A DNA stretch of 64,000 bases from assembly GCF_024502345.1 (NCBI RefSeq), contig NZ_JALDNN010000001.1, one strand, 5' to 3'. The stretch's first letter is position 1; every line of letters starts with the position of its first letter. Below, piece by piece: positions 53,295 to 59,084 of this stretch. The notes beneath the pieces were generated by a model. The model was not told the DNA's origin. It did no database searches and saw only the letters and a list, made by a program, of their open reading frames with translations. Made by a program: the position numbers and the translations under genes. Origin of the DNA: Escherichia coli (GTDB lineage: Bacteria; Pseudomonadota; Gammaproteobacteria; Enterobacterales; Enterobacteriaceae).

Positions 53295-53513
53295 TTAGAT
53301 GATAAATGACAGCAGGAATGTGCCCGCCAGAGCGACGACTGAAGCGATAAATGTCGCTGTCGTATAGTATTTAAATGTTTCATTGAGCGTAGCGCCGCAA
53401 TATTGCTTCACTAGCCAGAAAAGCGAGTCCGTAACGATCGTGCAGCCAATTGCACCTGAACCGATAGCAATCGCAATAATTTCCGGGCTGATGTCGGGAT
53501 ACAGCGGCAGCAC
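53295..53513 (-). pseudogene. dsdX: 3' remnant (about 72 codons) of D-serine permease gene dsdX
   Basis: Translation …LPLYPDISPEIIAIAIGSGAIGCTIVTDSLFWLVKQYCGATL…LSFII is the C-terminus of a GntP-family permease; the rest of the gene is absent and the csc island follows. Confidence 0.8.
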
Positions 53514-53743
53514 AATGATCCATATTTATATTTTCTTCTCCAGGTTGGCGATGCCAGTTGGCATGTTTTACTTACTTGCCTATATGGTTACTCGTTGGCG
53601 AGAACAGAGGCGGAATTGGGGACAATTGTCCGGGAATTATTGTTATTTTTTATTGTATTGCTGTGTCAGGTGATAGGGCGTTGGATCTCGCCAGTGACGT
53701 CTGTTTCTGCTACAGTGCCCGTTTTACGGCAAACGGCTTGGGT

Positions 53744-54739
53744 ATGGCTTCATTAAAGGATGTCGCACGCCTGGCGGGAGTGTCGATGATGACAGTCTCC
53801 CGGGTGATGCATAATGCAGAATCTGTGCGTCCTGCAACGCGTGACCGCGTATTGCAGGCAATCCAGACCCTGAATTATGTTCCTGATCTTTCCGCCCGTA
53901 AGATGCGCGCTCAAGGACGTAAGCCGTCGACTCTCGCCGTGCTGGCGCAGGACACGGCTACCACTCCTTTCTCTGTTGATATTCTGCTTGCCATTGAGCA
54001 AACCGCCAGCGAGTTCGGCTGGAATAGTTTTTTAATCAATATTTTTTCTGAAGATGACGCTGCCCGCGCGGCACGTCAGCTGCTTGCCCACCGTCCGGAT
54101 GGCATTATCTATACTACAATGGGGCTGCGACATATCACGCTGCCTGAGTCCCTGTATGGTGAAAATATTGTATTGGCGAACTGTGTGGCGGATGACCCAG
54201 CGTTACCCAGTTATATCCCTGATGATTACACTGCACAATATGAATCAACACAGCATTTGCTCGCGGCGGGCTATCGTCAACCGTTATGCTTCTGGCTACC
54301 GGAAAGTGCGTTGGCAACAGGGTATCGTCGGCAGGGATTTGAGCAGGCCTGGCGTGATGCTGGACGAGATCTGGCTGAGGTGAAACAATTTCACATGGCA
54401 ACAGGTGATGATCACTACACCGATCTCGCAAGTTTACTCAATGCCCACTTCAAATCGGGCAAACCAGATTTTGATGTTCTGATATGTGGTAACGATCGCG
54501 CAGCCTTTGTCGCTTATCAGGTTCTCCTGGCGAAGGGGGTACGTATCCCGCAGGATGTCGCCGTAATGGGCTTTGATAATCTGGTTGGCGTCGGGCATCT
54601 GTTTTTACCGCCGCTGACCACAATTCAGCTTCCACATGACATTATCGGGCGGGAAGCTGCATTGCATATTATTGAAGGTCGTGAAGGGGGAAGAGTGACG
54701 CGGATCCCTTGCCCGCTGTTGATCCGTTGTTCCACCTGA
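53744..54739 (+). CDS. cscR: LacI-family sucrose operon repressor CscR
   Basis: 331-aa product starting MASLKDVARLAGVSMMTVSRVMHN (LacI HTH) with periplasmic-binding-protein-like sugar domain; the ORF-track start at 53558 is an upstream in-frame ATG inside the island junction. Confidence 0.9.
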   Translation: MASLKDVARLAGVSMMTVSRVMHNAESVRPATRDRVLQAIQTLNYVPDLSARKMRAQGRKPSTLAVLAQDTATTPFSVDILLAIEQTASEFGWNSFLINIFSEDDAARAARQLLAHRPDGIIYTTMGLRHITLPESLYGENIVLANCVADDPALPSYIPDDYTAQYESTQHLLAAGYRQPLCFWLPESALATGYRRQGFEQAWRDAGRDLAEVKQFHMATGDDHYTDLASLLNAHFKSGKPDFDVLICGNDRAAFVAYQVLLAKGVRIPQDVAVMGFDNLVGVGHLFLPPLTTIQLPHDIIGREAALHIIEGREGGRVTRIPCPLLIRCST

Positions 54740-54746
54740 TATTATG

Positions 54747-57310: not shown

Positions 57311-57381
57311 TGAGAAGTAAACGGCGAAGTCGCTCTTATCTCTAAATAGGACGTGAATTTTTTAACGACAGGCAGGTAATT

Positions 57382-58629
57382 ATGGCACTGAATATTCCAT
57401 TCAGAAATGCGTACTATCGTTTTGCATCCAGTTACTCATTTCTCTTTTTTATTTCCTGGTCGCTGTGGTGGTCGTTATACGCTATTTGGCTGAAAGGACA
57501 TCTAGGGTTGACAGGGACGGAATTAGGTACACTTTATTCGGTCAACCAGTTTACCAGCATTCTATTTATGATGTTCTACGGCATCGTTCAGGATAAACTC
57601 GGTCTGAAGAAACCGCTCATCTGGTGTATGAGTTTCATCCTGGTCTTGACCGGACCGTTTATGATTTACGTTTATGAACCGTTACTGCAAAGCAATTTTT
57701 CTGTAGGTCTAATTCTGGGGGCGCTCTTTTTTGGCCTGGGGTATCTGGCGGGATGCGGTTTGCTTGACAGCTTCACCGAAAAAATGGCGCGAAATTTTCA
57801 TTTCGAATATGGAACAGCGCGCGCCTGGGGATCTTTTGGCTATGCTATTGGCGCGTTCTTTGCCGGCATATTTTTTAGTATCAGTCCCCATATCAACTTC
57901 TGGTTGGTCTCGCTATTTGGCGCTGTATTTATGATGATCAACATGTGTTTTAAAGATAAGGATCACCAGTGCGTAGCGGCGGATGCGGGAGGGGTAAAAA
58001 AAGAGGATTTTATCGCAGTTTTCAAGGATCGAAACTTCTGGGTTTTCGTCATATTTATTGTGGGGACGTGGTCTTTCTATAACATTTTTGATCAACAACT
58101 TTTTCCTGTCTTTTATGCAGGTTTATTCGAATCACACGATGTAGGAACGCGCCTGTATGGTTATCTCAACTCATTCCAGGTGGTACTCGAAGCGCTGTGC
58201 ATGGCGATTATTCCTTTCTTTGTGAATCGGGTAGGGCCAAAAAATGCATTACTTATCGGTGTTGTGATTATGGCGTTGCGTATCCTTTCCTGCGCGCTGT
58301 TCGTTAACCCCTGGATTATTTCATTAGTGAAGCTGTTACATGCCATTGAGGTTCCACTTTGTGTCATATCCGTCTTCAAATACAGCGTGGCAAACTTTGA
58401 TAAGCGCCTGTCGTCGACGATCTTTCTGATTGGTTTTCAAATTGCCAGTTCGCTTGGGATTGTGCTGCTTTCAACGCCGACTGGGATACTCTTTGACCAC
58501 GCAGGCTACCAGACAGTTTTCTTCGCAATTTCGGGTATTGTCTGCCTGATGTTGCTATTTGGCATTTTCTTCCTGAGTAAAAAACGCGAGCAAATAGTTA
58601 TGGAAACGCCTGTACCTTCAGCAATATAG
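57382..58629 (+). CDS. cscB: sucrose:H+ symporter (oligosaccharide:H+ symporter MFS family)
   Basis: 415 aa, 12-TMS MFS permease starting MALNIPFRNAYYRFASSYSFLFF. Confidence 0.93.
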   Translation: MALNIPFRNAYYRFASSYSFLFFISWSLWWSLYAIWLKGHLGLTGTELGTLYSVNQFTSILFMMFYGIVQDKLGLKKPLIWCMSFILVLTGPFMIYVYEPLLQSNFSVGLILGALFFGLGYLAGCGLLDSFTEKMARNFHFEYGTARAWGSFGYAIGAFFAGIFFSISPHINFWLVSLFGAVFMMINMCFKDKDHQCVAADAGGVKKEDFIAVFKDRNFWVFVIFIVGTWSFYNIFDQQLFPVFYAGLFESHDVGTRLYGYLNSFQVVLEALCMAIIPFFVNRVGPKNALLIGVVIMALRILSCALFVNPWIISLVKLLHAIEVPLCVISVFKYSVANFDKRLSSTIFLIGFQIASSLGIVLLSTPTGILFDHAGYQTVFFAISGIVCLMLLFGIFFLSKKREQIVMETPVPSAI

Positions 58630-59069
58630 ACGTAAACTTTTCCGGTTGTTGTCGATATCTCCCTATCCCTCAACCGGAAAATAATAATACTAAAGTGCTT
58701 AGCCCTGCTAATAATCACCTAATCCAAACGCCTCATTCATGTTCTGGTACAGTCGCTCAAATGTACTTCAGATGCGCGGTTCGCTGATTTCCAGGACATT
58801 GTCGTCATTCAGCGACCTGTCCCGTGTATCACGGTCCTGCGAATTCATCAAGGAATGCATTGCGGAGTGAAGTATCGAGTCACGCCATATTTCGCTATCA
58901 GGATTCTGTGTGATGGTTACATCGCCCGGCCCAGGGCTGTTTAGTCATCAGCGCTTTCTGACAGTGCTGAGATTTCAACCTGTTGCAGTAAAAATGAGTA
59001 GATATAAGGCAAGTGTGCTGCCAAACCCATCTTTTACGGGGTGAAGGTAGATTTCGTATGAAGGGTATC

Positions 59070-59084
59070 TGGTGTCCCCTGCAG
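59070..59084. other. attachment-site core: 15-nt copy of the argW tRNA-Arg 3' end
   Basis: tggtgtcccctgcag is the reverse complement of the 3' terminus of tRNA-Arg(CCU) argW, the KplE1/CPS-53 integration target in K-12; no complete tRNA is present here. Confidence 0.6.

Follow-up and report, generated by a model that had tools for sequence, protein, structure and literature searches.

Replacement of dsdC and most of dsdX by the csc island in an Escherichia coli argW-dsdA region: junctions, make-up, and the remaining dsdA gene

In the window, i.e., the whole 64-kb stretch of E. coli DNA that was analysed, a csc island comprising cscR, cscA, cscK, and cscB, all intact, is located between a 3′ remnant of dsdX (53295-53512) and the argW att core (59070-59084). 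The arrangement of the genes between the att core and dsdA (cscR> <cscA cscK> cscB>) is that of the csc regulon, and no internal stops were found in the csc genes, dsdA, or the dsdX-remnant open reading frame (ORF). Gene layout, profile matches, and K-12 alignment agree in placing cscRAKB between a dsdX remnant and an argW-type att core, as had been stated in the preliminary description. The features of the region are as follows.

51949-53277, minus strand: dsdA, D-serine ammonia-lyase, 442 aa, intact, without dsdC and without the dsdX promoter
53295-53512, minus strand: dsdX 3′ remnant, 218 nt, DsdX residues 374-445, stop codon at 53295-53297
53513-53644, no strand: junction filler, 132 bp between the dsdX remnant and the csc module, without K-12 homology, conserved in csc+ E. 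coli
53744-54739, plus strand: cscR, LacI-family repressor, 331 aa
54747-56180, minus strand: cscA, GH32 invertase, 477 aa, convergent with cscR across a 7-bp gap
56181-56395, no strand: divergent control region of cscA and cscKB, 40% GC, with two palindromes
56396-57310, plus strand: cscK, fructokinase, 304 aa
57382-58629, plus strand: cscB, sucrose:H+ symporter of the oligosaccharide MFS (LacY) family, 415 aa
58637-58681, plus strand: hairpin CTTTTCCGGTTG ... CAACCGGAAAA, inverted repeat I1, just 3′ of cscB
58717-59003, minus strand: DUF4942 pseudogene, decayed, residues ~38-151 of a 281-aa protein
59070-59084, minus strand: argW att core CTGCAGGGGACACCA, 15 bp, identical to the argW 3′ end and K-12 pawZ, right boundary of the island
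59158-59358, minus strand: torI, excisionase (recombination directionality factor) of the following argW-integrated prophage, context outside the island

In profile searches, cscA scored 481 bits against scrB_fam (TIGR01322; cut-off, 356), cscK 506 bits against the fructokinase equivalog NF006957 (cut-off, 450), and cscB 594 bits over its full length against TIGR00882 (cut-off, 220). The cscR product matched LacI-family models only, all below their equivalog cut-offs, and NCBIfam holds no CscR model; the protein is 100% identical to WP_001344440.1, named "sucrose operon repressor CscR" in RefSeq. CscB is identical to WP_001197016.1 of O157:H7 and OW1E2, CscK to WP_001274878.1 of strain OW1E2, and CscB, CscK, and CscR all represent widespread alleles. 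CscA possesses the motifs WMNDPNG at residue 36, RDP at residue 160, and ECP at residue 215. Its pair of substitutions T170S and G181D, both near the RDP motif, recurs in a single other complete genome (1 of the 2327 having that stretch), and a further rare substitution is C312. Upstream of cscR, the window has the allele lacking 12 bp. The two palindromes TGTTAACGTTAACT of the control region (56211-56227 and 56275-56291; repeat families D5 and I3) are putative CscR operators, as judged from the symmetry of LacI-family operators. By analogy to established csc biology, CscB would import sucrose together with a proton, CscA would cleave it in the cytoplasm, and CscK would phosphorylate the resulting fructose, with CscR predicted to act at the two palindromes, keeping both divergent promoters (those of cscA and cscKB) repressed when no inducer is present.

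Nucleotide alignment (blastn) to K-12 was used to place the junctions. Homology ends at 53512 (position 14968 of locus L001) and restarts at exactly 59070; the left junction is therefore 53512/53513, just outside the range of about 53514..53560 in which it had been expected. The GTG start of the 72-codon dsdX-remnant ORF is created by the junction itself. Altogether, 5557 bp of csc DNA (53513-59069) stand where K-12 MG1655, which carries dsdC and a full dsdX, has 2368 bp comprising dsdC and 1120 of the 1338 nt of dsdX, whereas the flanks are collinear with those of MG1655 (CPS-53/KplE1 at argW) at 94 to 99% identity, from emrY through dsdA to the dsdX 3′ end on the left and from the pawZ att core to torI on the right. 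The 132-bp filler adjoining the left junction is present at 96 to 100% identity in loci L002, L003, L004, and L008 and at 76% in the divergent Escherichia locus L010; it is absent from the csc loci of Citrobacter, where homology begins at 53703, and of Escherichia sp. MOD1-EC7003, where it begins at ~53645. Beyond these csc+ copies, no likeness to the filler was detected in K-12, Citrobacter, or the other compared loci, and an Rfam search of the 53- to 59-kb region returned no match.

At the right boundary, the window holds one copy of the att core; neither a second copy nor flanking direct repeats, as a sign of site-specific insertion of the island, were found in it. The copy adjoins torI at a distance of 73 bp, as in K-12 and as expected of the attR of a KplE1/CPS-53-type prophage. 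NCBIfam has no TorI model; torI shows 94% nucleotide identity to the torI region of K-12 CPS-53, and RefSeq names the orthologue TorI. No argW tRNA or other tRNA-Arg gene was found within the 64 kb; the argW gene and the integrase end of the prophage lie past position 64000. In other strains, intS or a different integrase is found beside tRNA-Arg.

The 440-bp segment following cscB (58630..59070), singled out earlier for characterisation, proved to consist of a conserved hairpin, a decayed DUF4942 pseudogene, and, next to the att core, a further 66 bp. The hairpin columns are invariant among E. coli, the divergent Escherichia lineage, and Citrobacter, and homology to Citrobacter ends at 58684-58688; the hairpin closes the csc module and is a possible terminator. 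The pseudogene shows 74 to 76% nucleotide identity to intact DUF4942 genes and, by blastx, 50% amino acid identity, its reading frame being interrupted by one in-frame stop codon and one frameshift. Islands of the yeeS-yeeT-cbeA-cbtA type have an intact copy as their last gene, and PGAP annotates a DUF4942 fragment at the same place in other strains. Judging from these relatives, the pseudogene is the scar of a tRNA-linked integrative island. The 66 bp beside the att core resemble nothing in K-12, Citrobacter, or any other compared locus. An equation of EDL933 z3622 with the DUF4942 fragment was considered and dropped: the published deletion of 5637 bp, when mapped onto the O157 locus, puts z3622 at the recombinase gene past the att core.

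On the other side of the island, little of the D-serine system remains apart from dsdA. The 72-codon ORF (53295-53513, minus strand) matched the 445-position DsdX model only over positions 374-445, and the same 219-bp partial DsdX pseudogene is annotated by RefSeq in other strains. A tblastn search with the K-12 proteins revealed no homologue of DsdC or full-length DsdX elsewhere in the window, the only match being the paralogue YfeR with 27% identity. DsdA, by contrast with DsdC and full-length DsdX, is present: the gene scored 815 bits against the NCBIfam equivalog TIGR02035 (cut-off, 368), and its product shares 99.8% amino acid identity with K-12 DsdA. The K-12 alignment, profile search, and protein search of the 64 kb thus bear out the earlier picture of a curtailed dsdX (84% gone), a missing dsdC, and an intact dsdA. 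Of its native upstream sequence, dsdA retains only 235 bp.

The csc regulon of EC3132 and E. coli W was reportedly described by Bockmann in 1992 and Jahreis in 2002. Compared by way of the literature, it resembles that of the window in that the four genes are flanked by the variable argW region and by dsdX, and in the loss of D-serine use (Archer 2011, PMC3032704). The O157:H7 locus (EDL933/Sakai type; cscR z3626, cscA z3625, cscK z3624, cscB z3623, truncated dsdX, and dsdA) corresponds to that of the window in gene order, both junctions, the 219-bp dsdX remnant, the amino acid sequence of CscB, and the 440-bp segment (95.7% identical), whose DUF4942 scar likewise abuts the argW att repeat. 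It differs by 12 extra bp upstream of cscR and, past the att core, by a different element, with a recombinase gene in place of torI and an HK97-immunity prophage. In Citrobacter amalonaticus, cscR, cscA, cscK, and cscB show the same order and orientation, including the post-cscB hairpin, with 81 to 83% nucleotide identity over 53703-58688, but the cluster is located between ytfQRT-yjfF and fbp and has no dsdX remnant, DUF4942 scar, or att core. Likewise, the csc module of Escherichia sp. MOD1-EC7003 occupies a different chromosomal site, beside an lpxP-like gene. Near the csc locus of the window, a truly strain-specific feature was observed: evgA and emrK, together with parts of evgS and emrY, have been lost in an IS903B-linked deletion.

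The preliminary description had taken the exact junctions to be strain-specific, which would follow if the island had been acquired recently by this strain or its recent ancestors. That earlier expectation is all we found in favour of a recent acquisition, which is extremely improbable in view of the distribution of the breakpoints; the junctions are not specific to this strain. Sequence spanning the left junction was found in 2666 of 5426 complete E. coli genomes, the whole csc/dsd configuration in 2645 of these 5426, and the 440-bp right segment in 2636 complete genomes; both junctions are base-for-base continuous in four more strains (O157:H7, OW1E2, CAVP773, and C 236-04A). The same junctions occur in the divergent Escherichia locus L010, where dS values of the csc genes (0.25 to 0.44) are similar to those of dsdA (0.34) and emrY (0.47). 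Because the junction is also found in this Escherichia lineage, which is only ~90% identical, the csc replacement is ancient. These comparisons show a single event behind the csc module and the deletion of dsdC and most of dsdX, followed by later spread. One ancient event set the ~5-kb module (about 53645-58688) directly downstream of argW and removed dsdC together with its shared control region with dsdX and 1120 nt from the dsdX 5′ end. The module adjoins the remains of the tRNA-linked island represented by the DUF4942 scar. The csc allele has since been inherited and exchanged by homologous recombination and is present now in about half of the sequenced E. coli.

Whether the four genes confer growth on sucrose is a separate matter. 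Five isolates with no obvious csc defect failed to grow on sucrose, and Csc generally supports slow growth (PMC11251922), so that an intact-looking locus in a sucrose-negative or very slow strain, owing to regulation, low CscB affinity, or rare CscA substitutions, is conceivable here, albeit rather unlikely. The rare T170S and G181D pair of CscA would be in line with such a defect, as would the one other genome with this pair, the closest relative, in which cscB is broken by an IS5-family element; this interruption suggests weak selection for the csc pathway in the lineage. Against a defect stand the four full-length ORFs with intact catalytic motifs, the identity of CscB, CscK, and CscR to widespread alleles, and a dN/dS of about 0.08 for the csc genes over a long divergence. 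As for D-serine, the strain would be D-serine-positive if, like K1 strains, it had another complete dsdCXA copy beyond the 64 kb. Second copies and rare strains with both csc and dsdCXA have been reported (PMC7486766; PMC11251922). The dsdX 3′ part was found at 5655 places in 5376 genomes, so that more than one such place can exist in no more than about 5% of genomes, a count that gives only an upper bound (~5%) for genomes with both csc and dsdCX. We consider a second copy very improbable in this strain, as its closest complete genome (NZ_CP109924.1) has a single place matching a dsdA-containing query and the window itself contains no further copy.

Expression of the remaining dsdA can be approached by analogy to EHEC, in which dsdA at this junction is silent or poorly expressed and is reactivated by deletions placing cscAp upstream (PMC7486766). 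The EHEC gene stays intact, and its disruption leads to higher basal recA promoter activity (PMC13012123). Without DsdC and with 235 bp of native upstream sequence, dsdA of the window would, as at the same EHEC junction, not be induced by D-serine, so that the strain should be inhibited by D-serine and unable to use it for growth; any expression would be low-level and DsdC-independent. A promoter scan gave 3 sites compared to 8 expected by chance from shuffled controls and therefore provides no information on dsdA expression. Between csc+ lineages, dN/dS of dsdA ranges from 0.06 to 0.09. Because of the value of about 0.06, the orphan dsdA is probably still useful, and the low ratio suggests that residual DsdA activity still matters. 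This argument is weakened because dsdA alleles have evidently been swapped between csc+ and dsdCXA+ strains, the dsdA of csc locus L003 being identical to the K-12 gene.

Two more specific proposals for dsdA can be considered on this basis. The gene may be no relic but a maintained, DsdC-independent function of the csc allele, expressed either from a weak promoter of its own or by sucrose-induced read-through from the cscA promoter. The gene has remained intact, under constraint equal to that on the csc genes, from a time before the split between E. coli and the same-junction lineage, which is at a dS of ~0.3 to 0.45; nevertheless, we regard such maintenance as unlikely. Also unlikely is an outright rewiring, in which sucrose would relieve CscR repression and transcription from the cscA promoter would run antisense through cscR into the dsdX remnant and dsdA, making DsdA sucrose-inducible. 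The layout would permit this, with cscA, the dsdX remnant, and dsdA on the common minus strand, the cscA stop 7 bp from that of cscR, and no terminator-like site predicted on the minus strand from 54747 to 53513. Moreover, deletion of cscR in EHEC derepresses cscAp, and read-through switches dsdA on (PMC7486766), and purifying selection on dsdA in csc+ lineages would be in line with it. On the other hand, the wild-type EHEC fragment from cscAp to dsdA gave a low reporter signal, measured without sucrose (PMC7486766), read-through must traverse 1.2 kb against convergent cscR transcription, and allele exchange with dsdCXA+ strains can equally account for the purifying selection.

Taken together, it is highly probable that the argW-dsdA region of this strain carries the standard E. 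coli csc allele, with the ancient one-event history, csc function, and D-serine consequences outlined above. The locus is ordinary, because about half of the complete E. coli genomes carry the csc island with the same junctions. The csc-for-dsdCX exchange is well documented and already known, a sucrose-for-D-serine exchange having been in the literature since 1979. Replacement of dsdC and part of dsdX by csc at the argW hotspot has been described in strains that do not use D-serine (PMC4366372; PMC3032704; PMC11251922), and these reports, as well as PMC7486766, agree with the original identification of the locus as the known sucrose/D-serine trade-off. As already published, it is at this locus that extraintestinal E. 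coli able to use D-serine differ from the D-serine-sensitive lineages, most of which are intestinal. Added here are the exact breakpoints (53512/53513 and 59069/59070), the composition of the 440-bp segment with its DUF4942 island scar, and evidence that a divergent Escherichia lineage has the same junction. A modest evolutionary point is that an activator-less dsdA is still under purifying selection, which gives a concrete reason to test for DsdC-independent expression. If the orphan dsdA is indeed maintained, the locus would represent a regulatory rewiring and more than a simple sucrose-for-D-serine trade.

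The genes of the locus, taken from a six-frame ORF list, are as follows; no internal stop is present in any of them.

Genes of the sucrose/D-serine locus
51949-53277, minus strand, dsdA; NCBIfam DsdA score above the curated cut-off
53295-53513, minus strand, 72-codon ORF, dsdX remnant; DsdX model positions 374-445 of 445
53744 (annotated start)-54739, plus strand, cscR; generic LacI models
54747-56180, minus strand, cscA; NCBIfam score above the curated cut-off
56396-57310, plus strand, cscK; NCBIfam score above the curated cut-off
57382-58629, plus strand, cscB; NCBIfam score above the curated cut-off
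59158-59358, minus strand, torI, 66-codon ORF

The identification of a sucrose/D-serine locus with an intact dsdA and a dsdX reduced to a 72-codon remnant in the preliminary description was confirmed by these scores, the full-length dsdA ORF, and the restricted coverage of the DsdX model in NCBIfam. CscR, for which only generic LacI models of NCBIfam matched, is identical to a RefSeq protein of that name. No tRNA genes were found in the csc-dsd part of the window. In the csc system, sucrose is imported by CscB and hydrolyzed by CscA, fructose is phosphorylated by CscK, and the divergent promoters are repressed by CscR; the csc genes are intact in the window. The finding is the correct recognition of an already known locus: the incompatibility of sucrose and D-serine utilization has been known from genetic work since 1979, the csc genes were reported in 1992 and 2002 and the variable argW-dsdCXA island in 2006, and papers of 2015-2026 added the link to the ecological niche.

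The junctions were mapped by blastn of the window against K-12 MG1655. Because homology stops at 53512 and restarts at 59070, 5557 bp (53513-59069) take the place of 2368 bp of K-12. What K-12 carries there is dsdC with the spacer separating it from pawZ, the control region between dsdC and dsdX, and 1120 nt of dsdX. Window and K-12 agree up to and including ...GGCAGCA and diverge right after; the left junction therefore lies at 53512/53513 and not, as previously proposed, at 53514-53560. Of the 1338 nt of dsdX, the final 218 are kept, and the GTG start of the 72-codon ORF is a product of this junction. On the right, homology resumes exactly at TGGTGTCCCCTGCAG, the reverse complement of the 15-bp argW 3' core (pawZ in the K-12 annotation), of which the whole window holds one copy. 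As tblastn detected no further DsdC or DsdX in the 64-kb window, the reported absence of dsdC and truncation of dsdX were upheld for the window.

The distribution of this configuration was determined in 5426 complete E. coli genomes using a criterion of at least 80% query coverage. The whole configuration (query 51900-59400) was present in 2645 genomes, the left junction (301-bp spanning query) in 2666, and the 440-bp segment between cscB and the att core in 2623 (2636 when any match counts; usually at a single place in the genome); the K-12 segment replaced here was found in 2698. In genomes with intact dsdX, the match of the 301-bp probe ends at base 113, equivalent to 53512. In four other strains (O125ac:H10 C 236-04A, CAVP773, OW1E2, and O157:H7 146N4), the sequences on either side of each junction directly adjoin, to the base. 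The exact junctions, formerly described as strain-specific, are not. The nearest genome is C 236-04A, with 99.8% identity.

The 440-bp segment, whose characterization had been proposed, could be resolved by nucleotide and blastx matches into three parts: approximately 95 bp that include the cscB hairpin, a decayed piece of a DUF4942 gene in minus-strand orientation, and 66 bp directly at the att core, for which no origin was found. Intact DUF4942 genes match positions 58725-59003 at 74-76% identity; blastx aligned DUF4942 residues 76-151 at 50% identity with one in-frame stop, and residues 38-65 in another frame. Intact DUF4942 genes are the last genes of islands with Ag43, antirestriction, yeeS, yeeT, cbeA, and cbtA and abut core genes, and we infer that a tRNA-linked island formerly resided here and was almost entirely deleted. 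In all csc+ strains examined, an argW-type repeat comes after the 440 bp, regardless of the integrated element (P22/lambdoid prophage, P4-like element, or O157 remnant); the 440 bp thus form the chromosomal flank of argW where the csc allele is present.

A CscB-based scan with one genome per species revealed four additional contexts of the csc cluster. L010, which is labelled E. coli but is only ~90% identical, shares the dsdX/csc junction, with a further 110-bp deletion within the remnant, and the right end of 66 bp plus core. In Escherichia sp. MOD1-EC7003 the cluster adjoins an lpxP-like gene, with homology from ~53645; in two Citrobacter amalonaticus-group species it is flanked by ytfQRT-yjfF and fbp and matches 53703-58688 at 81-83% identity; and Rosenbergiella carries a cluster with 62% amino-acid identity. 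From the homology limits in MOD1-EC7003 and Citrobacter, the transferable csc module spans ~53645-58688; its end is marked by a conserved hairpin after cscB. In C. amalonaticus (L011, 10310-11422), a 370-aa ORF matching only the C-terminal two-thirds of methyl-accepting chemotaxis proteins follows the cluster, before fbp; here, too, the insertion site may hold a truncated gene. In the comparison of the window with L010, the csc genes gave dS values of 0.25-0.44, dsdA 0.34, and emrY 0.47; given this similarity, the junction dates back about as far as the split of the two lineages.

Within the island, the cscA-cscK spacer contains two TGTTAACGTTAACT palindromes, which are likely candidate operators. 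CscA carries T170S and G181D (55638-55673) close to the RDP motif, a pair found in 1 of 2327 genomes, that of C 236-04A; both positions are conserved in other E. coli sequences and in Citrobacter, and C312 differs even from C 236-04A. Upstream of cscR (~53683) two alleles exist: 12 bp, CGTYGRGAATWT, located ~60 bp before the cscR start, are missing in the window, C 236-04A, and CAVP773 and present in O157:H7, OW1E2, L010, and a further csc locus (L009). In C 236-04A (NZ_CP109924.1; L002, 13483-15930), an IS5-family (ISKpn26-like) element interrupts cscB, so that the sucrose pathway is already inactivated in this near-identical lineage.

Outside the csc finding, the most distinctive nearby feature is an IS903B-linked deletion. 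IS903B (49850-50906; flanks 49795-49849 and 50907-51841) has intact 18-bp inverted repeats, lacks a 9-bp target duplication, and adjoins a 2920-bp deletion relative to K-12 that removed evgS codons 1-40 (first 120 nt), all of evgA, evgL, emrK, and emrY codons 1-201 (603 nt). With these genes gone, loss of both the acid-resistance regulator EvgAS and the pump EmrKY is expected. Both IS903B junctions together occur in no complete E. coli genome; MB51 shows the evgS-side junction in the form of a simple insertion, the evgS-side portion of the query is also covered in four further records, and ET450 shows an independent IS903B deletion extending to emrY.

At the argW site, a prophage (59085-64000) carries torI at its end and continues beyond the window end. 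Its HK97-type immunity region, ~96% identical to HK97, comprises:
61419-62132, cI
62233-62433, cro
62571-62867, cII
The torI-cI distance is ~2 kb, whereas in related strains early-left genes (ea22, abc, ssb, erf, kil, and cIII) occupy ~10 kb of this interval; either this region was deleted or the prophage is a remnant. Just upstream of the torI start codon and ~300 bp from the real att core lies TTGCAGGTTCGATTCC (59378-59393, minus strand), a 16-nt stretch identical to the argW T-arm; it runs on into non-argW sequence and may be left over from a different att site of tRNA origin. Elsewhere, 405 bp unmatched to K-12 (13759-14164), adjoining the lysV-valYXU tRNA cluster, replace the 4.4-kb xapR-xapB-xapA-yfeN block; yfeS (~960 bp in K-12) is missing between cysM and yfeK (1968-1972), as is the K-12 IS186 copy between nupC and pdeA (20067-20078).

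As to dsdA without its activator, EHEC with the same junction does not grow on D-serine and is inhibited by it; the wild-type region upstream of dsdA gave a low reporter signal, and dsdA was reactivated by cscR deletion or by deletions moving the cscA promoter closer (PMC7486766). A 2026 paper states that EHEC dsdA remains intact and that its disruption raises basal recA promoter activity (PMC13012123). The dsdA gene of CAVP773 is identical to that of K-12; dsdA alleles have thus clearly been exchanged with dsdCXA+ strains, which qualifies the reading of dN/dS. Among csc+ lineages, L010 included (dS 0.34), dsdA dN/dS is 0.06-0.09, similar to that of the csc genes (~0.08), and this low ratio suggests that dsdA has continued to function in csc+ lineages.
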